A DNA stretch of 64,000 nucleotides, taken from assembly GCA_945992255.1 (NCBI GenBank), contig CAMFVQ010000027.1:24026-88025 (forward strand), read 5' to 3'. Below, in pieces: positions 53,235 to 62,023 of the stretch; the stretch's first letter is position 1, and every line of letters begins with the position of its first letter. The notes beneath the pieces are model-generated. The model saw only the letters and a list, made by a program, of their open reading frames with translations, was not told the origin of the DNA and did no database searches. Source of the DNA: an uncultured Clostridia bacterium (lineage in GTDB: Bacteria > Bacillota > Clostridia > Christensenellales > UBA3700). The position numbers and the translations under genes are program-made.

Positions 53235-53882
53235 ATGTTTTGGATGTATTGGTTGAGCATAATCGGAATATTTTTGGGAGTTGTTGCGGTGATTTTCATC
53301 GCTCTAGCTTTGTTTGGGCGACTTCAAATAATGTATTTTTGGGATAGAGAAAGCAGTTTGGGGTGTGTCGATATATTGCTCAATGGTAAAATATCATTGC
53401 TGAAAGTCAAGACACTTGAGTGCGGTGGTGATATTTGGTATCAGGTCGGAGGGCGAGAACTGACTAAAATTGAGCAAAATAACCCCAAAATAGCAACAAT
53501 TAACAAGAAATTTTGCAATAATAAATATGCAAAAGATGAACAATGCAATTTGAAAAAGAGCAAAAAGCATATAAAAGTAGGCAAGGTTGTACAAGATTGG
53601 TTGCCATTTAAGCAGGCTAGCTCGACAATGAATGTATTTTATAACAATATTGATTGTTTAGAATGCGGTATGGTGATAGGATTGAGCGAACTATATAGAC
53701 AATTGTATGCAAAAATTGCAGGTAAAATATTTGCTGGAGAAAATAGGTTTGAATTGATAAGCAGTTTTGACAATACCAATCAATTGAAAATAAATGGAAG
53801 GGTAGATATAAAATACGGCGGTATACAAATAATTTTTCGTGTGTTGCGTATGCTAATATTTAGAAGGAGATATTATGGATAA
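53235..53882 (+). CDS. YtfI-like (DUF2953-type) membrane protein; start uncertain
   Basis: N-terminal TM helix. Lies immediately upstream of, and overlaps, the ytfJ-like gene. The ORF-track GTG at 53190 lies inside the scpB terminator, so I preferred the ATG at 53235. Confidence 0.5.
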   Translation: MFWMYWLSIIGIFLGVVAVIFIALALFGRLQIMYFWDRESSLGCVDILLNGKISLLKVKTLECGGDIWYQVGGRELTKIEQNNPKIATINKKFCNNKYAKDEQCNLKKSKKHIKVGKVVQDWLPFKQASSTMNVFYNNIDCLECGMVIGLSELYRQLYAKIAGKIFAGENRFELISSFDNTNQLKINGRVDIKYGGIQIIFRVLRMLIFRRRYYG

Positions 53883-54228
53883 TATAGAGAATATTATGAC
53901 AACAGCTCTCAGCAATCTAAAAGGTATAGTTGCCGAAGATAGTACAATTGTTAAGCCTATTTATATGGCTGATGGGACAATCATTGTGCCAATGAACAAA
54001 ATATCTGTCGGTATAGCTAGCATAGGCGGAGAGATGAAAAGTGGTGGTGAAGATAAGAATATAAATATGCCGTTCGGCGGTGGCGGTGGTGGCGGAATAA
54101 ATATCACACCTATGGGATTTTTGGTATGTACTGATGGCAACTATTGTGTGGTTAGAACTGATGAAAAGGAGAAAATGGACAAATGGAAAGACTTGGTAAA
54201 CATCGCTTTGAAAAGCATAAAAAAATAG
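53875..54228 (+). CDS. ytfJ: GerW/YtfJ-family sporulation protein
   Basis: 117 aa: IVPMNKISVGIASIGGEM...PFGGGGGGGINITPMGFLV matches the family pattern. AAGGAG RBS. Confidence 0.85.
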   Translation: MDNIENIMTTALSNLKGIVAEDSTIVKPIYMADGTIIVPMNKISVGIASIGGEMKSGGEDKNINMPFGGGGGGGINITPMGFLVCTDGNYCVVRTDEKEKMDKWKDLVNIALKSIKK

Positions 54229-55655
54229 TATCCGACAAATTATACTTCTCAAATAAGTATTATATTGTAACAATATTTACAAATATAACACTATTGATTA
54301 TGCTATTATCGATTATTGCAAGCATAATGAGATTTTTGCCTAACACACAATCAACTTTCCAATTGTCCAATGTATCACTATGTTCTGAGCAAGATGAATT
54401 CCCCAAAGTGATGACATCAAATGACTTTGTAGACGACAAGGGCAAGGTTTTTGCTGGCAATGTTTGGCAATGTGACAGCAGTGATTGGGGATCTGATTGT
54501 GTGACTGAAAGCGGAGCAAATAGATTGGCAAATTGTAGTTTATCTCAGCCAAAACATAGCAATATATGTGCAGCAGGTTGCCATTATGATAGAGGTTGTT
54601 TTGCCAGTGGTGACAATTCTTCCGTTGTTGTTGAAAGAAAAAGTAGACAAATTTTATATGGACAAAATGTACATTTAGCAATGGGTATGGCAAGCACAAC
54701 AAAGATTATGACGGCACTTGTTGCGATAGAGAATTGTCCACTTGATAGGCTTGTAAAAATCCCTAAGCAGGCAGTTGGAGTGGAAGGCTCTTCTATTTAT
54801 CTAAAAGAAAATGAGCTTTGGTCGGTGCAAGATTTGCTGTATGGATTGATGTTACGCAGTGGCAACGATGCTGCTGTTGCACTTGCTGTTGAAATTGGTG
54901 GAAGTGTGGACAATTTTGTTGATATGATGAATGACAGAGTTGCCGCAATGGGGCTTGAACATACTCATTTTACCAATCCTCACGGACTGAGTGAATCGGG
55001 GCATTTTACGAGTAGTTTTGACCTTGCAATGATTACTTGTGAAGCTCTTGAAAATGTAGATTTTGCAAGGATTGTGAGTGCAAAAAGCTATGAAGTGCAA
55101 GGTAACGAAACGCACCCGAAAGTTGTGTTTTGTAACAAAAACAAAATGCTGGGTATGTTCGAGGGGTGCGATGGAGTTAAGACAGGATATACCAAAGCTA
55201 CCGGCAAGTGTCTAGTCAGCTCTGCAACTCGTGGAAATATGGCGTTGGTATGTGTTACGCTCAACAATCCAAATATGTGGCAAGAAAGTATATTTTCGCT
55301 CCAAAAAGCCTTCGATGAATACACGCTTGTCAAAGTTTTGGACAAAAATCAAGACTTGTTCGTGTTGGAAAGCGGTGACAAAAAATATCGATTTAGGGCC
55401 GACAATAATATCAATATTCCACTCAAAAAATCTGACAATGTGAATATAGATTATTGTATAGATTGCTCAGATGTTAAAACAATTAGTATTGATAAAATGC
55501 AAAATGTTGGTAAAGTCTATCTAAATATAAATAATTGCTTGATTTTTTGCGAAAAAATAAGTAGTATTGATAGTATAAAAGACAAGGCGATAATCAAGTC
55601 ATTGCCGAATGTTGTTGGCGATGGCTGTTTGGAAAATCAGTATGGAAAGACTTAA
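54183..55655 (+). CDS. D-alanyl-D-alanine carboxypeptidase (S11, DacB-like by position) with a Cys-rich N-terminal extension
   Basis: SxxK (STTK), SxN (SGND) and KTG (KTGYT) motifs. TM anchor, then a ~90-aa segment with 7 Cys before the catalytic domain. Confidence 0.85.
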   Translation: MERLGKHRFEKHKKIVSDKLYFSNKYYIVTIFTNITLLIMLLSIIASIMRFLPNTQSTFQLSNVSLCSEQDEFPKVMTSNDFVDDKGKVFAGNVWQCDSSDWGSDCVTESGANRLANCSLSQPKHSNICAAGCHYDRGCFASGDNSSVVVERKSRQILYGQNVHLAMGMASTTKIMTALVAIENCPLDRLVKIPKQAVGVEGSSIYLKENELWSVQDLLYGLMLRSGNDAAVALAVEIGGSVDNFVDMMNDRVAAMGLEHTHFTNPHGLSESGHFTSSFDLAMITCEALENVDFARIVSAKSYEVQGNETHPKVVFCNKNKMLGMFEGCDGVKTGYTKATGKCLVSSATRGNMALVCVTLNNPNMWQESIFSLQKAFDEYTLVKVLDKNQDLFVLESGDKKYRFRADNNINIPLKKSDNVNIDYCIDCSDVKTISIDKMQNVGKVYLNINNCLIFCEKISSIDSIKDKAIIKSLPNVVGDGCLENQYGKT

Positions 55656-56360: not shown

Positions 56361-56388
56361 GACAAGGTGAAAGCCTTGTCATTTTTTT
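56361..56388 (+). terminator. intrinsic terminator after rluB
   Basis: GACAAGG-tgaaag-CCTTGTC followed by ATTTTTTT. Confidence 0.85.
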
Positions 56389-56635
56389 GCAAATATAATA
56401 TTGATAATAAATTATGTTTTATCTAAAAGAAGATATGGTTTGGACTTGGCAAGCAGTGTTGGGGAGAGGTCGATTGGCTGACAATTTTTGCCGAATTTTG
56501 TCTTTTGACGATGTCGATATTGCCAAAATTTTGCGATAAATTGTTAAAAAGATAACAATAAGATATACAATTTTGTTGTATATTGTAAAATTATAAAAAT
56601 TTTTATCCATTTTTGCATTTTGCGGTCACTTTTTC

Positions 56636-56664
56636 TTGCAAAAATTTTGTCAAAAATATATAAT
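56636..56664 (+). promoter_or_regulatory. sigma-A promoter of the decarboxylase operon
   Basis: TTGCAA, 17 nt, TATAAT. Lies about 40 nt upstream of GGAGG and the ATG at 56707. Confidence 0.65.
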
Positions 56665-56706
56665 GCTAAATGAACAATTATAATTATAAACATATTGGAG
56701 GTTAAT

Positions 56707-58101
56707 ATGGAGAATAACAATCTCTCTGCGTTCTCAAAAGCACTTGACAATGCAAATTCTAAAATCAAGAAATTTGTGAATGGTATTGTTGATGCTGAGA
56801 GCTTTGTTGAGACAGATGCTTTTCTTAGTGGAAAGGGTTTTGACAGTGCGTTGGACGCATTGAGCGAAGGCGTTGTGACTGGTTATGCAACTATTGGTGG
56901 TATGCCTGTTCATCTTTTTGCTCAAAACACTGAAGTAATGAAAGGCAGTATGAGTCACGCTCAAGCACAAAAAATTGCAAAAGCTATGCAAAGAGCTGTG
57001 ACAGCAGGCGTTCCATTCGTATCAATTATTGATAGCTGTGGAGCTAGAGTTGGTGAGGGTGCTAGTATTATGGAAAGCTATGCAGAACTTATCACCAACA
57101 GCACAATTTTGGCAGACAATGTGCCACATATCGTTATCATCAAGGGCGTTGCCGTTGGTATGATGGCTACTTATGTTGCAGGTGCTGACTTTGTATTCAT
57201 GAGCGAAGATGGCATTTTGTCAGTTAATTCTCCAATGTATTTGGCTTCCGACAAACACGGATTCCCAGAAATCAAATCTATCGTTGGTTATGACAACTAC
57301 AAAGCTACTTCAGATTTGGCTCAATTCTCTTTCAAGAACGAAAAAGACCTTGCTGCAAAACTTGCTAAGCTTTTTGCAGTAGTTATGCCAGCTGATGAAG
57401 AAGAAGCAGAAGATGATGCTAACCGCATTGATCCAGCTCTCAACAAGCCTATGGCTGCTGACAAGCGTATTGCTAGCATTTGCGACAAGGGCAGTGTGGT
57501 AGAATTCAACAAAGATTTTGCAAGCGAAGTTGTTTGCTCACTCGGCAAAATCAATGGTATCAGTGTTGGTGTACTTGCTACAAGCGGTGACTATATCAGC
57601 GAAGAAGGACTCGAGAAAGCTGCTGATTTTGTAGCTAAGCTTGATTCTTTTGACCTTCCACTTGTTACACTTGTTGATACACTTGGCGTCAATCCATCAC
57701 TCGAACAAGAGCTCAGAGGTTTTGCAAAGAAAACTAACAAGCTTATGACCACTATCGCAACTTCTTCAATCGCGAAGATTGGTGTTGCAGTAGGCAATGC
57801 AGTTGGTTTTGGTTATAGCGCTTTGATGAGCAAGGCAGTAGGCTTTGGTTATACATTGGCTTGCGAGAATGCTGTTGTTAGCCCAATCGCTCCAAATACA
57901 GCAGTTGCTTCTCTTATGGCTGACCAAATCAAGAAAGCTGACAACCTCGACGAAATCAGAAAACAACTCGAAGAGCAATATGCTAAGATGCAAGCTAGTC
58001 CACTAGTTGCTGCTAAGGACGGCTATCTTGACAATGTTATCGAGGCTCAAAATATTAGACCTTATGTTGCATCTGCACTTTTGATGCTTCTTGGTTTGTG
58101 A
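56707..58101 (+). CDS. carboxyltransferase-domain protein (acyl-CoA 12S/MmdA/GcdA/PccB-like), divergent
   Basis: Two crotonase-like halves. The recognisable segment is GVVTGYATIGGMPVHLFAQN...IIDSCGARVGEG. 464 aa. Confidence 0.75.
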   Translation: MENNNLSAFSKALDNANSKIKKFVNGIVDAESFVETDAFLSGKGFDSALDALSEGVVTGYATIGGMPVHLFAQNTEVMKGSMSHAQAQKIAKAMQRAVTAGVPFVSIIDSCGARVGEGASIMESYAELITNSTILADNVPHIVIIKGVAVGMMATYVAGADFVFMSEDGILSVNSPMYLASDKHGFPEIKSIVGYDNYKATSDLAQFSFKNEKDLAAKLAKLFAVVMPADEEEAEDDANRIDPALNKPMAADKRIASICDKGSVVEFNKDFASEVVCSLGKINGISVGVLATSGDYISEEGLEKAADFVAKLDSFDLPLVTLVDTLGVNPSLEQELRGFAKKTNKLMTTIATSSIAKIGVAVGNAVGFGYSALMSKAVGFGYTLACENAVVSPIAPNTAVASLMADQIKKADNLDEIRKQLEEQYAKMQASPLVAAKDGYLDNVIEAQNIRPYVASALLMLLGL

Positions 58102-58109
58102 GGTAAAGC

Positions 58110-58556
58110 ATGAAAAAAGCAAAAATTATCATCTCAATAATTTTGCTTGTATGTATGGTTATGGCATTCACCGGCTGTGATCTAAATTATGGCAACCCAG
58201 ACAAGCTCGAAATCGGCAAGGCTGGTGTAGGCACAAGAATTCTTATTGGTCTACAAGTTGCTTTGATTGGTATCGGCATGGTATTTGTAGTGCTACTTAT
58301 GCTTATTTTGCTTGTAAAGCTTATGCAACTGTTGTTCCAAATTGACTTCAAGAAGCTATTTGCAAAGAAGCAAAAGAAAGAAGAACCAAAACAAGTGGAG
58401 TCACAACCACAACCAGCCCAAGATGCTGACATACAAGCTGAAGAAGAAGTAGTGGCAGTTATTATGGCATCACTCATCGCTTACTATGAGGCAAGCGGAG
58501 TAGAATACAAGAGCAACCTACCATTCAAGGTTCGTTCTATCAAACAAATCAAATAA
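58110..58556 (+). CDS. OadG-family (gamma/delta-like) small membrane subunit with an N-terminal lipoprotein-like signal
   Basis: OadG-like TM (LIGIGMVFVVLLMLILLV) and C-terminal VVAVIMASLIAYYE. The N-terminus MKKAKIIISIILLVCMVMAFTGC is lipobox-like. Confidence 0.7.
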   Translation: MKKAKIIISIILLVCMVMAFTGCDLNYGNPDKLEIGKAGVGTRILIGLQVALIGIGMVFVVLLMLILLVKLMQLLFQIDFKKLFAKKQKKEEPKQVESQPQPAQDADIQAEEEVVAVIMASLIAYYEASGVEYKSNLPFKVRSIKQIK

Positions 58557-58576
58557 TCGGATATAGGAGAAATAAT

Positions 58577-58936
58577 ATGCGTAAATTTAATGTTAATGTA
58601 AATGGCAAAAATTATGCCGTAGAAGTTGAAGAAGTTGGTGGCGTAGCTACCGCACCAGTAGTTCCAGTAGCTGCTGCCCCAGTACAAGCTGCTGCTCCAG
58701 CACCAGCTGCCGCTCCACAAGGTGCAGGCAAGCCAGTCAATGCTCCTATGCCAGGTCTTGTAAAGAAACTTTGCTTTGACAATGGTGCAATCGTTAAGGA
58801 AGGCGATACAATCGTAATTTTGGAAGCAATGAAAATGGATACTCCAGTTGTTGCAAGCGTTAGCGGTGTTATCACTTATTCTACAACTGCAGGTTCAAAC
58901 GTAGACACAGGTGCTGTTCTTTGTACAATAGCATAA
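58577..58936 (+). CDS. biotin carboxyl carrier protein (biotinyl domain)
   Basis: Ala/Pro-rich linker, then the EAMKMDT biotinylation motif. Confidence 0.9.
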   Translation: MRKFNVNVNGKNYAVEVEEVGGVATAPVVPVAAAPVQAAAPAPAAAPQGAGKPVNAPMPGLVKKLCFDNGAIVKEGDTIVILEAMKMDTPVVASVSGVITYSTTAGSNVDTGAVLCTIA

Positions 58937-58949
58937 TTTTGGAGGAATA

Positions 58950-60425
58950 ATGGTCAACTTTTTTACTACACTACCATCGTTTAGTATGTTGGAGTCGCTC
59001 AAAAACTTGTGGGAAAGCACTGGTTTTATGACAAGTTTGACACCAATATGGCAAAACCTCATTATGATAGGTATTGCTTGTGTGTTGATTTACTTGGCAG
59101 TTGCTAAGGAATTTGAGCCAAACCTCCTTCTTGCTATCGGATTCGGTATGTTTATTATCAATATTCCTGGTGCGTACAGCATATTGTATGGTACTCTCGG
59201 ATACAAAGTTTCCTTTGTAGGCACTCCAGAACAACTCGAGGCACTCAAATCATTGGGCTTTGTAAATGAGGCAGGACAATATCTTACTGCAAATGGGGAG
59301 ATTATATCGGGTACAGTAAAAGAACTTGCTAAGCTTTTGGGCGTGACTTTCCAAGAAGGAATGAGCGCAACTGCCCAATACAATGCAGTTCATACAGCAA
59401 TCGAACAAGTTGTAGCTGGCTACCAAAGCCAAATAGATGGCAACGCACTATTTGAAGGTGTAAATCTTGTAAAAGGTCTCAACCTTACCCACGAAGTTGT
59501 TGCTGATCAAGGCTTGTTCTTCTATCTATACAAAGGTGTAGAGTGGGTTATCTATCCACCACTTATATTCTTGGGCATTGGTGCTATGACCGACTTTGGT
59601 CCACTTATCGCCAATCCAAAGAGCTTGTTTATGGGTGCAGCTGCCCAACTTGGTATCTTCATCACATTCATCATTGCAATCAACATTGGCTTTACTGGTG
59701 AAGAAGCTGCTGCTATCGGTATCATCGGTGGTGCAGACGGACCTACAGCTATCTATGTAACTGTAAAACTTGCTGCTCACTTGTTGCCAGCTATTGCAGT
59801 TGCGGCATACTCATACATGGCACTCATCAAGGTTATCCAACCACCTATTATGAAACTTATGACCACCAAGAAAGAGCGTCAAATCGTTATGGAACAACTT
59901 CGTCCAGTATCAAAGACAGAGAAAGTTGTATTCCCAATCGCTGTTACTGGTATCGTAGGTATCATTCTTCCATCAGCTATTCCACTACTTGGTATGCTTA
60001 TGCTTGGTAACCTTATGAAAGAATCAGGCGTTGTTCCTAGACTTGTCAACACCGCAAAGAACGAACTCATCAACATCGTTACAATCTTGCTTGGTGTACT
60101 TGTAGGTACTAAGGCTACTGCGGACGTATTCTTGAATCCACAAACACTTCTTATCGTCGTTATTGGTGTATTCGCATTCTCATTCGGTACAGCAGGCGGA
60201 CTTCTTATCGGTAAGATTATGTGCAAGTTGTCAGGTGGCAAAATCAACCCACTTATCGGTTCTGCTGGTGTATCAGCCGTTCCAATGGCAGCGAGAATTT
60301 CGCACAATGTAGGACAAGAAGAAAATCCAAACAACTATTTGCTTATGCACGCTATGGGACCTAACGTAGCAGGTGTTATCGGTTCAGCTGTTGCTGCCGG
60401 CGTACTCCTCGCTATCTTCGCATAA
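58950..60425 (+). CDS. sodium ion-translocating decarboxylase beta subunit (OadB/MmdB/GcdB family)
   Basis: GAMTDFGPL, GIIGGADGPTAIY, AAYSYMAL, SAGVSAVPMAAR and LMHAMGPNVAGVIGSA motifs. Confidence 0.93.
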   Translation: MVNFFTTLPSFSMLESLKNLWESTGFMTSLTPIWQNLIMIGIACVLIYLAVAKEFEPNLLLAIGFGMFIINIPGAYSILYGTLGYKVSFVGTPEQLEALKSLGFVNEAGQYLTANGEIISGTVKELAKLLGVTFQEGMSATAQYNAVHTAIEQVVAGYQSQIDGNALFEGVNLVKGLNLTHEVVADQGLFFYLYKGVEWVIYPPLIFLGIGAMTDFGPLIANPKSLFMGAAAQLGIFITFIIAINIGFTGEEAAAIGIIGGADGPTAIYVTVKLAAHLLPAIAVAAYSYMALIKVIQPPIMKLMTTKKERQIVMEQLRPVSKTEKVVFPIAVTGIVGIILPSAIPLLGMLMLGNLMKESGVVPRLVNTAKNELINIVTILLGVLVGTKATADVFLNPQTLLIVVIGVFAFSFGTAGGLLIGKIMCKLSGGKINPLIGSAGVSAVPMAARISHNVGQEENPNNYLLMHAMGPNVAGVIGSAVAAGVLLAIFA

Positions 60426-60448
60426 GCCACACACAGAGAGGTATTATT

Positions 60449-61846
60449 ATGGTAAAAATTACAGAAACAATATTGCGTGATGCACACCAATCCCAAGCTG
60501 CTACCAGAATGAGATTGGACGAAATGTTGCCAATGGCTGCCCAATTGGACAGTGTTGGTTATTACTCAATCGAGTGTTGGGGCGGTGCTACATTCGATGC
60601 TTGTCTTAGATTTTTGAATGAAGATCCATGGGAAAGACTTAGAGCATTGAGAAAAGCTATGCCAAACACCAAACTCCAAATGCTTTTGCGTGGTCAAAAC
60701 ATTTTGGGATATAAGCACTATGCTGACGACGTTGTAGACGAATTCGTAAAGAAATCTATCGAAAATGGTATTGATATTATCCGTATTTTCGACGCTCTCA
60801 ACGACAAGAGAAATATGGAACAAGCTATCAAGAGCTGTAAAAAATACGGCGGTATCTGCGAGGCTACTATCTCTTACACCACAAGCCCAGTTCATACCAA
60901 CGAGTACTTTGTACAACTTGCAAAAGACCTCGAAGATATGGGTGCTGACAATATTTGTATCAAAGATATGGCAGGCATTTTGCTTCCATACGTTGCTTAC
61001 GACCTTGTAAAAGAGATGAAGAAAGTCCTCAAAAAGGATACTCTCATTCACTTGCACACTCACCAAACTGCTGGCACAGGTAACCTTACTTATCTAAAAG
61101 CTATCGAGGCTGGAGTAGATATCATCGACACAGCACTCAACGCTCTCGGCAATGGTACATCTCAACCTTCTACAGAGTCTATGGTTGCAGTACTTCAAAA
61201 CACAGAGTATGATACCAAGCTTGACCTGAAGCTTCTCAACGAAATCTCCAACGAGTTTATTCCTGTTGCAGAAAGACTTAAAAAAGATGGTTGGCTCACA
61301 GAAAAATCTATCAAAACCGATGTTAAGGCACTTATTTACCAAGTTCCTGGTGGTATGCTTTCCAACCTTGTTGGACAACTCAAAAAGCTCGGCGCTATGG
61401 ACAAATTCGACCAAGTGCTTGCTGAAGTTCCAAATGTAAGAAAAGACCTTGGTTATCCACCACTTGTTACTCCTACTAGCCAAATCGTTGGTACTCAAGC
61501 AGTGTTCAACGTAGTTAGCGGAGAGAGATACAAGGTTGTATCTGCAGAAACAAAGGGCTTGCTAAAAGGCGAATATGGTCATCTTCCAGCTGAGCCAAGT
61601 GCAGAGATTGTTAAGCAAATTTTGGGCGATACAGAGCGTATCACTTGCAGACCTGCTGACCTTCTCGAGCCAGAACTTGCTAAGTATAGAGAAGAAATCA
61701 AAGAGTATATCGAACAAGATGAGGACGTTTTGTCTTACGCATTGTTCCCACAAGTTGCTCTCAACTTCTTCAAGTACAGACAAGCCAACAAATATCATGT
61801 TGACAGTGCAGTAGCTGACCCAGCAAAGGGCATTCAAATTGTCTAA
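60449..61846 (+). CDS. oxaloacetate decarboxylase alpha / pyruvate carboxylase subunit B-type (5S) carboxyltransferase, no biotinyl domain
   Basis: N-terminus ITETILRDAHQSQAATRMR and the HLHTHQTAG metal-site motif. The protein ends without an AMKM motif. Confidence 0.9.
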   Translation: MVKITETILRDAHQSQAATRMRLDEMLPMAAQLDSVGYYSIECWGGATFDACLRFLNEDPWERLRALRKAMPNTKLQMLLRGQNILGYKHYADDVVDEFVKKSIENGIDIIRIFDALNDKRNMEQAIKSCKKYGGICEATISYTTSPVHTNEYFVQLAKDLEDMGADNICIKDMAGILLPYVAYDLVKEMKKVLKKDTLIHLHTHQTAGTGNLTYLKAIEAGVDIIDTALNALGNGTSQPSTESMVAVLQNTEYDTKLDLKLLNEISNEFIPVAERLKKDGWLTEKSIKTDVKALIYQVPGGMLSNLVGQLKKLGAMDKFDQVLAEVPNVRKDLGYPPLVTPTSQIVGTQAVFNVVSGERYKVVSAETKGLLKGEYGHLPAEPSAEIVKQILGDTERITCRPADLLEPELAKYREEIKEYIEQDEDVLSYALFPQVALNFFKYRQANKYHVDSAVADPAKGIQIV

Positions 61847-61857
61847 TTGAAACAAAT

Positions 61858-61884
61858 AAAGCTCAACTTCGGTTGAGCTTTTTT
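61858..61884 (+). terminator. intrinsic terminator after the decarboxylase operon
   Basis: AAAGCTCAAC-ttcg-GTTGAGCTTT followed by TTT. Confidence 0.9.
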
Positions 61885-62023
61885 GGTAGCGATTTTATTT
61901 ATTCGGCGATATGTAATATTGATTTTATATATAAAAGCATTGTATTGTCAAAATTTTGCAAAACCTACCAACAAAATACATTATTATATTTACTTATTTA
62001 CTTTATTTTGTTAGAATAAGTTT

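Follow-up and report, generated by a model that had tools for sequence, protein, structure and literature searches.

This work concerns a 64 kb stretch of DNA, hereafter the window, from the genome of an uncultured Clostridia bacterium affiliated with the Christensenellales (UBA3700; GenBank assembly GCA_945992255.1, contig CAMFVQ010000027.1, positions 24,026 to 88,025), and a set of five genes on its + strand (56695-61846). Judging from their sequences, these genes form a real operon predicted to encode one biotin-dependent complex in the membrane that pumps sodium at the expense of oxaloacetate decarboxylation, and the assignment of the predicted products to a split-subunit, biotin-dependent Na+-translocating oxaloacetate decarboxylase is secure. 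The operon also carries a gene for an acyl-CoA-type carboxyltransferase, which in this uncultured Christensenellales lineage has lost most of its otherwise invariant residues.

Organization of the operon

The five co-oriented open reading frames (ORFs) are separated by intergenic gaps of 8, 20, 13, and 23 nt in gene order, and Shine-Dalgarno (SD)-like motifs (GGAGG, GAGG, or AGGAG) were found upstream of all five start codons. The first gene (56695-58101; 468 aa as an ORF, probably 464 aa) encodes a divergent carboxyltransferase-like subunit of the 12S/MmdA/PccB type (hereafter CT). It is followed by genes for an OadG/MmdD-like membrane anchor subunit (58110-58556; 148 aa; Pfam OAD_gamma), a free biotin carboxyl carrier protein (BCCP; 58577-58936; 119 aa; Pfam Biotin_lipoyl) with the motif EAMKM, an OadB-type Na+-translocating carboxybiotin decarboxylase (58950-60425; 491 aa; Pfam OAD_beta; TIGR01109), and a short OadA/5S-type (pyruvate/oxaloacetate) carboxyltransferase (60449-61846; 465 aa; HMGL-like and PYC_OADA domains). 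An earlier reading of the same DNA, made without database searches (hereafter the sequence-only reading), had described five tightly packed genes with gaps of 8-23 nt and an SD each, and had listed a CT, an OadG-like subunit, a free BCCP with EAMKM, an OadB-like pump, and an OadA/PycB-like 5S carboxyltransferase without a biotinyl domain; the ORFs, the SD motifs, and the Pfam and NCBIfam models agree with this layout and inventory.

The TTG at position 56695 is probably not the start of the first gene. Translation most likely starts at the ATG at 56707, which gives a protein of 464 aa, because a GGAGG motif is located at 56697-56701, 5 nt upstream of this codon, and because the homologues are 464 aa long.

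A candidate sigma-70-type promoter (TTGCAA-17 nt-TATAAT; 56636-56664, + strand) was recovered by a consensus scan with 10/12 matches within a 300-nt AT-rich intergenic region, downstream of the terminator of the rluB-like gene (56361-56380). The promoter proposed in the sequence-only reading was therefore found by the scan, although taken alone the match says little, since such sites are common in the AT-rich DNA of this region (32 found vs. 18.6 expected by chance). The approximately 255 nt between the rluB-like terminator and the operon promoter (56381-56635) are likewise AT-rich and contain several overlapping promoter-like sites on both strands. The terminator that had been placed behind the operon could be verified as an intrinsic terminator on the + strand (61858-61887), which consists of a 10-bp stem (AAAGCTCAAC/GTTGAGCTTT) with a TTCG loop, the hairpin itself spanning 61858-61881, and a subsequent T-run. 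The hairpin is palindromic and was listed by the scan on the - strand; on the + strand the sequence reads ...GAGCTTTTTTTGG. A Na+ riboswitch or other leader RNA upstream of the operon was considered and rejected, as an Rfam scan (E<=1) for riboswitches and leader RNAs returned no family in or before the operon and only a chance small RNA match on the terminator.

Taxonomic distribution and gene order

One genome per GTDB species was scanned, which yielded 278 genomes with a relative of the CT. The best 80 of these 278 are all metagenome-assembled genomes (MAGs) of uncultured Clostridia/Christensenellales, sampled in the guts of humans, mice, chickens, and termites or in digesters. In 75 genomes the locus extends far enough to be informative on gene order. 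The order CT-G-BCCP-OadB-OadA, where G denotes the OadG-like gene, is kept in 72 of the 75 informative species-level genomes, and the five-gene arrangement is therefore not a product of chance; the survey of related genomes that the sequence-only reading had proposed thus revealed the co-occurrence it asked about. The three exceptions have the gene orders CT-G-BCCP-OadA, without OadB (L070), CT-G-BCCP (L085), and CT-G (L082). The operon is flanked by conserved housekeeping genes, namely scpA, scpB, ytfJ, dacB, and rluB upstream and surE, a gene for a HI0933-like flavoprotein, and cmk downstream.

A profile search additionally returned CTs of 516 aa from other Clostridia (hereafter canonical CTs), which are annotated as "methylmalonyl-CoA carboxyltransferase," "MmdA," or "acyl-CoA carboxylase beta." Four of the five loci examined for these proteins (L087, L088, L089, and L091) have the same five-gene order right after scpAB-ytfJ-dacB-rluB, and one of them (L087) belongs to the cultured Petroclostridium sp. 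X23 with a complete genome (CP124862.1). The five-gene operon is ancestral in Clostridia and occupies the same chromosomal site in many members. It is common in Clostridia and not unique to the window, it is uncharacterised, and in the lineage of the window one of its subunits has undergone a lineage-specific decay. The operon is consequently not unusual within its phylogenetic neighbourhood; of the possibility raised in the sequence-only reading that it might turn out to be a well-characterised and common operon, only the second half applies, as it is common and routinely auto-annotated but not well characterised.

The fifth locus with a 516-aa CT (L092; 1-9848, GCA_021083345.1) is located at another site and carries a classical four-gene set CT-OadG-BCCP-OadB without OadA. 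It adjoins genes for a TRAP transporter, an aldehyde dehydrogenase, and a class-III aminotransferase, and this setting may indicate that the same chassis serves another purpose there, in catabolism. Pump-less operons composed of genes for a CT, a small protein, a BCCP, and an OadA were observed at the same syntenic site as the five-gene operon in L090 (7001-10761) and L070 (7956-12131). On their own, these would have to function as transcarboxylases, unless an OadB gene is located elsewhere.

Subunits of the putative oxaloacetate decarboxylase

The OadA-like protein passes the NCBIfam equivalog NF008985 ("oxaloacetate decarboxylase subunit alpha") with 736 bits (cut-off: 718) and remains below the cut-off of the 5S equivalog NF008984 (589 bits; cut-off: 827). 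Its match to OadA from V. cholerae (2nx9) scored 524 bits and that to the 5S structure (1rqb) 489 bits. It contains neither a biotinyl nor an association domain; HMGL-like and PYC_OADA were identified by Pfam. The metal ligands of this domain type (Asp, carbamylated Lys, His, and His) are present as D17, K178, H207, and H209 in the alignment to 2nx9 and are conserved in 72-73 of 73 family sequences.

The OadB protein scored 477 bits on TIGR01109 (cut-off: 190.6). Its alignment to Salmonella OadB (6iva) shows each of the residues D203, Y229, N373, G377, S382, and R389 (6iva numbering), none of which varies among the 75 family sequences. It contains a soluble insert of approximately 110 aa at residues ~78-188, where Salmonella OadB has approximately 60 residues, and its length across the lineage ranges from 392 to 529 aa.

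In the BCCP, the N-terminal anchor peptide (MRKFNVNVNGKNYAVEVEEVGG) is joined by an Ala/Pro linker to the biotinyl domain, which carries EAMKM. It matches MmdC, and its residues 3-118 align to residues 481-594 of OadA, i.e., to the association-plus-biotin region. All 75 family loci have EAMKM, and their anchor peptide hardly varies. The OadG-like protein is recognized by Pfam OAD_gamma (45.5 bits; cut-off: 27) and falls just under the cut-off of TIGR01195 (33 bits; cut-off: 36.05). It has two hydrophobic segments (residues 1-28 and 38-81) instead of one. The extra N-terminal segment (residues 1-23), which precedes the usual OadG transmembrane helix, has a lipobox-like ...AFTGC end and also occurs in the close relatives L007, L031, and L045, while a single helix is found in the distant family members L001 and L003 and in the canonical Clostridial loci L087-L089.

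Since all known catalytic residues of OadA and OadB and the EAMKM motif are kept in 73-75 related genomes, the route from oxaloacetate via biotin to the Na+ pump is fully equipped.

Ancestry and decay of the carboxyltransferase-like subunit

The CT was identified as a member of the Pfam family PF01039 (Carboxyl_trans) with 220 bits, but on the curated subfamily model TIGR01117 (mmdA) it reaches only 210 bits, far under the cut-off of 998.8. It is approximately 26-30% identical to transcarboxylase 12S, PccB, AccD5, and PCC-beta. Its AF2 model is confident (pLDDT 89.4) and superimposes on the 12S/PccB/AccD5 structures with TM scores of 0.85-0.89 (0.85-0.87 for 12S, 1on3). Close relatives comprise 142 proteins at E<=1e-20 with a top identity of 94%, all from MAGs of uncultured Clostridia/Christensenellales and named only "carboxyl transferase domain-containing protein" or "hypothetical." Complete genomes with the decayed CT include the MAG chromosome OZ006985.1.

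The window CT scored 194-222 bits against the syntenic Clostridial CTs and 168-174 bits against 12S, Thermotoga, and PCC-beta sequences, and these higher scores to the syntenic proteins identify it as a diverged ortholog rather than a foreign paralog. An unrelated paralog displacing MmdA was rejected on the same grounds, together with its position in the syntenic operon and the presence there of an intermediate CT (P0163), which belongs to the pump-less operon L090 at the same site. The mmdA scores form a gradient from the canonical operon ortholog P0266 (932 bits) via P0163 (502 bits) to the window CT (210 bits). The canonical CT of 516 aa is near-canonical in sequence, with an mmdA score that spans its full length and with the motifs GPCAGG and RKAYGGAY, and the intermediate carries GTAAGS and AIGAGY. 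Profile searches of a library of 1.84 billion proteins, with 1,430 clusters below 1e-30, recovered a continuum from the CT family to the canonical CTs, with highly varied motifs in between. A profile built from intermediate CTs returned mainly canonical 516-aa proteins and thereby exposed the ancestral operon without mapping the intermediate forms. The best score with this profile (962 bits) was obtained by P0261, an unusually long CT-domain protein (761 aa) of a Solirubrobacterales MAG.

Between the window and the canonical loci, identity is 31-33% for CT, 63-64% for OadA, and 65-68% for OadB. When the canonical loci are compared with one another, the conservation of CT (81-85%) matches or exceeds that of OadA (77-85%). 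Inside the lineage of the window the median pairwise identity is 50% for CT, 64% for BCCP, 71% for OadB, and 78% for OadA, and the distance ratio d(CT)/d(OadA) is 2.7. Sites were then compared at positions invariant in an outgroup structure and three canonical loci, and were counted as kept if conserved in at least 90% of the lineage sequences; by this measure 22% of the canonical-invariant sites are kept in CT as compared to 79% in OadA and 80% in OadB. A set of 12 diverse canonical CTs has 147 positions that do not vary; of these, the lineage keeps 38 and mostly keeps 28, while 9 have switched (eight to another fixed residue and one to a deletion) and 72 are variable. The variable set takes in most positions of the GPCAGGxxYSPA, PGFxPG, RK-AYGG, WP, and AVMG motifs. 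The CT is also trimmed at both termini, as approximately 30 N-terminal and 17 C-terminal residues are gone, including the tail KKHGNxP(L/V).

Characterised enzymes of this type have two glycine-based oxyanion holes, G-G or G-A (bioRxiv 10.64898/2026.02.06.704326). The CT lacks such a pair in both half-sites. Its first oxyanion hole is G155-M156, with position 156 being M in 29, L in 14, S in three, I in one, and H in one family member and never G or A, and its second is F372-G373, with position 372 being F in 14, Y in 11, A in eight, L in eight, G in three, and M in two. These substitutions do not prove inactivity, because the holes use backbone amides. Alignment position 375, which corresponds to the specificity position D422 of PccB, is S, T, A, or V in the window family and mostly Ile in the canonical Clostridial operon CTs (8/12 of the comparison set); Ile at this position is the state of the acetyl-CoA-accepting AccB.

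The CT ORF is nevertheless intact in all 75 genomes, and the ratio of nonsynonymous to synonymous substitution rates (dN/dS) was estimated from 16 usable genome pairs at ~0.09 for CT, 0.04 for OadA, and 0.12 for OadB, values that are rough because most genome pairs are saturated at synonymous sites. The CT is still folded and under purifying selection, and its interpretation as a pseudogene was rejected given the intact ORF of approximately 460-470 aa in 75 genomes, the dN/dS of ~0.09, and the confident fold prediction. The statement of the sequence-only reading that the operon combines two different carboxyltransferases is overstated, as the 12S-type protein is a strongly decayed ortholog in view of its mmdA score, the loss of canonical-invariant sites, and the substitution of glycines in both oxyanion holes.

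Genomic context

According to Pfam, 40 of the larger ORFs of the window outside the operon encode housekeeping functions, except for two that specify an MFS-type sugar transporter and a protein of the aldehyde dehydrogenase family. The housekeeping set includes PolA, ThrRS, RuvB, QueA, Tgt, SecDF, RecJ, RelA, PNPase, FtsK, a MiaB-like protein, PgsA, CinA, RecA, RNase Y, a LysA-like protein, ScpAB, DacB, RluB, and SurE. No genes for methylmalonyl-CoA mutase/epimerase or the glutaconate pathway, which the sequence-only reading had suggested looking for, and no acc or fab genes were found among these ORFs within the 64 kb window. The search for methylmalonyl-CoA mutase/epimerase and glutaconate pathway genes was equally negative in the ±8 kb flanks of approximately 90 related loci.

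Upstream of the operon, the ytfJ-like ORF (53875-54228) overlaps the start of a long dacB-like ORF (54183-55655) by 46 nt. The dacB-like ORF has a Cys-rich N-terminal extension of approximately 120 aa ahead of the Peptidase_S11 domain, and its annotated start may be too far upstream, as its homologues in related loci are 375-390 aa long.

Comparison with known systems

Each characterised Na+-translocating decarboxylase has one carboxyltransferase (PMC8085960, PMC7145394), and the set of 12S, 5S, and a small BCCP is the subunit composition of transcarboxylase; the sequence-only reading was right on both points. The predicted complex resembles the OadABG type of oxaloacetate decarboxylase known from Klebsiella, Salmonella, and Vibrio (EC 7.2.4.2; 2nx9, 6iva) in the OadA metal ligands, the essential residues of OadB, and the biotin attachment lysine of the MKM motif, and probably in the OadG-like anchor. 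It differs from OadABG in that OadA is split into a protein with the carboxyltransferase domain and the separate BCCP, which holds the association peptide, the linker, and the biotinyl domain, and in the additional 12S/MmdA-type subunit encoded by the first gene, the OadB insert of approximately 110 aa, and the extra N-terminal hydrophobic segment of OadG.

A split oxaloacetate decarboxylase composed of OadA, OadB, OadD, and OadH is known from E. faecalis (PMC6193673). This enzyme shares with the window operon the short OadA without a biotin domain, the separate biotin carrier, and OadB, and it also has an extra small subunit that is needed for the complex (PMC6193673). Within NCBIfam, the window OadA and the E. 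faecalis type share one equivalog for short OadA proteins (NF008985), and the OadG-like protein takes the place in which OadH would be expected. The E. faecalis oad genes are, however, part of a citrate-lyase cluster without a 12S-type carboxyltransferase, whereas the window encodes a CT-like protein, and no cit genes were found in the 64 kb window, so that the citrate lyase linkage of the E. faecalis type is absent there.

With the methylmalonyl-CoA decarboxylase MmdADCB (Veillonella, Propionigenium) and the glutaconyl-CoA decarboxylase GcdABCD the first four genes share the order and the domain set (CT, anchor, BCCP, beta), and the N-terminal anchor and the Ala/Pro linker of the BCCP are common to all. 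In the model of Gcd the CT head is located above the beta dimer and is joined to it via the delta subunit and the N-terminus of the BCCP (PMC7145394). The window operon departs from Mmd and Gcd in a CT that fails the mmdA cut-off (210 vs. 998.8) and lacks the canonical oxyanion-hole glycines, and in its fifth gene for an OadA-type carboxyltransferase. The Propionibacterium transcarboxylase (12S, 5S, 1.3S) likewise combines a 12S-fold CT with a 5S-type carboxyltransferase and a small BCCP that has an assembly peptide at its N-terminus; it is soluble and without OadB and OadG, whereas genes for OadB and an OadG-like protein are included in the window operon. The 12S-like protein of the window is only ~28% identical to that of transcarboxylase and has lost most invariant sites, and its 5S-like protein is below the cut-off of NF008984. 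The syntenic Clostridial operons L087-L089 and L091 have the same family set, gene order, and chromosomal neighbourhood, with a near-canonical CT of 516 aa that scores 932 bits on mmdA.

The homologous cluster of C. thermocellum (Cthe_0699-0701/Clo1313_1523-1526), which was compared by published descriptions, comprises a carboxyl transferase, a gamma subunit, and an OadA-like protein. Cthe_0699-0701 have been listed as oxaloacetate decarboxylase (PMC3561251), and the CT of this organism was found in the membrane fraction at ~220 kDa and >880 kDa (PMC3039559). Oxaloacetate decarboxylase activity was reported as not detected in C. thermocellum (PMC8303734). In the metabolic model iCth446, Clo1313_1523-1526 were recruited as a putative malonyl-CoA-forming transcarboxylase because this organism is said to have no standard acetyl-carboxylase (PMC5414155). 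A similar operon with 12S and 5S genes in Geobacter bemidjiensis was predicted to encode a transcarboxylase (PMC2996986). Full-text searches of the literature for operons combining the pump with 12S and 5S genes returned genome-annotation or model statements only, which concern C. thermocellum, C. cellulolyticum, C. phytofermentans, and Geobacter bemidjiensis.

Putative function of the complex

We give an even chance to the interpretation that the operon encodes a split-subunit Na+-pumping oxaloacetate decarboxylase built on an inherited transcarboxylase/Mmd chassis, in which the decayed CT is retained mainly for assembly. The short OadA-type subunit would move the beta-carboxyl group of oxaloacetate onto the biotin of the free BCCP and release pyruvate, the carboxybiotin would swing over to OadB, and OadB would decarboxylate it and export Na+, while the OadG-like protein would tether the soluble parts to OadB; the flux would then run in the direction of decarboxylation. 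In the ancestral five-gene complex a near-canonical MmdA/12S-type CT would have given carboxybiotin a second partner, an acyl-CoA, and this complex may thus have been a hybrid of transcarboxylase and Na+ pump. In the lineage of the window the transfer of carboxyl groups to or from acyl-CoA may have been lost or weakened, and the decayed CT would form the oligomeric core that brings together the domain-less OadA and the anchor peptide of the BCCP, adding at most a low-flux or altered carboxyl-transfer side reaction. Its selective decay, with OadA and OadB frozen next to it, suggests a relaxation of its role in catalysis, and the loss of most ancestral constraints in a protein that is still folded and under purifying selection points to its being kept mainly as an assembly core. 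A role in assembly would also be expected because a domain-less OadA needs a core to dock on, and this need is paralleled by the docking of 5S on 12S through the N-terminus of 1.3S and by the requirement of E. faecalis OadA and OadD for OadH.

Several observations weigh against a CT that is retained mainly for assembly. Its best-conserved stretches are the active-site loops, and D113-x-x-G-A-R, G116, G122, G151, G155, D165, G371, Y374, K380, and G383 are invariant in the CT family. The positions of the acyl pocket that match L100 and Y143 of PCC remain hydrophobic or aromatic, and in the AF2 model helices begin at M156 and F372, so that oxyanion holes formed by backbone amides may persist. Similar non-glycine CT motifs are carried by the pump-less operons L090 and L070; should OadB be absent elsewhere in these genomes, the CT would be the sole partner of carboxybiotin and would have to be active. 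The full-text literature yielded no biochemical study of an operon with the pump, 12S, and 5S, which also counts against the proposed function. With its intact ORF, its dN/dS, the invariant active-site loops, the pocket, the model helices, and the pump-less variants, the CT cannot be called dead; its catalytic competence is doubtful but not disproved, and the possibility anticipated in the sequence-only reading that one of the carboxyltransferases is catalytically dead may hold for this subunit.

The alternatives outlined in the sequence-only reading, i.e., two decarboxylases with a shared pump, a membrane-associated transcarboxylase, or a complex switching between both activities, still define the appropriate range of hypotheses. 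Less likely is the alternative that both carboxyltransferases are active and constitute a membrane-anchored oxaloacetate:acyl-CoA transcarboxylase functionally joined to a Na+ pump, in which carboxybiotin formed from oxaloacetate would either be passed on to an acyl-CoA or be decarboxylated by OadB for Na+ export. The acyl-CoA step could be the conversion of acetyl-CoA to malonyl-CoA for an ATP-free lipid synthesis, or an exchange between propionyl-CoA and methylmalonyl-CoA. In this case the CT would have evolved fast because its substrate specificity changed or was relaxed, and not because its function was lost. The near-canonical CT of the ancestral operon (932 bits on mmdA over the full length; GPCAGG, RKAYGGAY), the Ile at the PccB D422 position in the canonical operon CTs, the conserved active-site loops together with the dN/dS of 0.09 in the window CT, and the pump-less four-gene operons, sensible only as transcarboxylases unless OadB is encoded elsewhere, are all in line with this alternative. 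C. thermocellum adds to it, with the reported lack of a standard acetyl-CoA carboxylase and the use of Clo1313_1523-1526 as a malonyl-CoA transcarboxylase in iCth446 (PMC5414155), and with the undetected oxaloacetate decarboxylase activity (PMC8303734). It is difficult to reconcile, however, with the 22% of canonical-invariant sites kept in CT as opposed to 79-80% in the partner subunits, with the replacement of oxyanion-hole Gly by M/L and F/Y/L, and with the absence of acyl-CoA pathway genes within the window; for a CT that provides all malonyl-CoA, one would expect a constraint no lower than in the canonical loci (81-85% identity).

That two decarboxylases share one BCCP and one pump, with OadA acting on oxaloacetate and CT on (S)-methylmalonyl-CoA or another acyl-CoA and each driving Na+ export, was the option named first in the sequence-only reading and is in our view very unlikely. 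Although the order of the first four genes (CT-delta-BCCP-beta) is exactly that of the Mmd/Gcd type, the BCCP matches MmdC, and a classical four-gene version without OadA exists at L092, the CT is decayed and far under the mmdA cut-off, methylmalonyl-CoA mutase/epimerase and glutaconate pathway genes were found neither in the window nor in the flanks of the ~90 related loci, and the operon is located among core housekeeping rather than catabolic genes. We attach slightly less probability still to a mainly reverse operation, in which a Na+ gradient generated elsewhere would drive the carboxylation of biotin at OadB and OadA would carboxylate pyruvate to oxaloacetate, so that the complex would be an ATP-independent anaplerotic pyruvate carboxylase. 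The constitutive housekeeping context and an operon without a biotin carboxylase gene would fit such a function, and the Oad and Mmd pumps are reported to be reversible (Dimroth and Hilpert 1984), which would likewise speak for it. The decarboxylation is strongly exergonic, at about -34 kJ/mol (PMC8085960), which argues against a mainly reverse operation.

Beyond the decarboxylase with a CT kept mainly for assembly, we propose only tentatively, and as rather unlikely, a more specific scenario for the whole group: the rluB-adjacent Clostridial operon would encode a hybrid of a membrane-anchored oxaloacetate:acetyl-CoA (acyl-CoA) transcarboxylase and a Na+ pump, and in the Christensenellales its acyl-CoA half would now be a pseudoenzyme kept only as an assembly core. 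If so, anaerobes without acetyl-CoA carboxylase could make malonyl-CoA ATP-free and bleed surplus carboxybiotin into the Na+ gradient.

Significance

The literature search found no purification of a complex of 12S, 5S, BCCP, and pump, and the combination of a 12S-type CT, a 5S-type CT, one BCCP, and a pump in one operon is conserved at one chromosomal site in many Clostridia, where it has been annotated piecemeal. If the ancestral complex switches between carboxyl transfer and Na+ pumping, it would explain the formation of malonyl-CoA in C. thermocellum and similar organisms reported to be without acetyl-CoA carboxylase, and would represent a new node in anaerobic energy conservation. The evolutionary contrast seen in the window, between a frozen OadA and OadB and a second carboxyltransferase that is decaying but always retained, provides a natural experiment on catalysis vs. 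scaffold. With regard to the gut microbiome, the findings suggest that Na+ export driven by oxaloacetate belongs to the core traits of uncultured Christensenellales.

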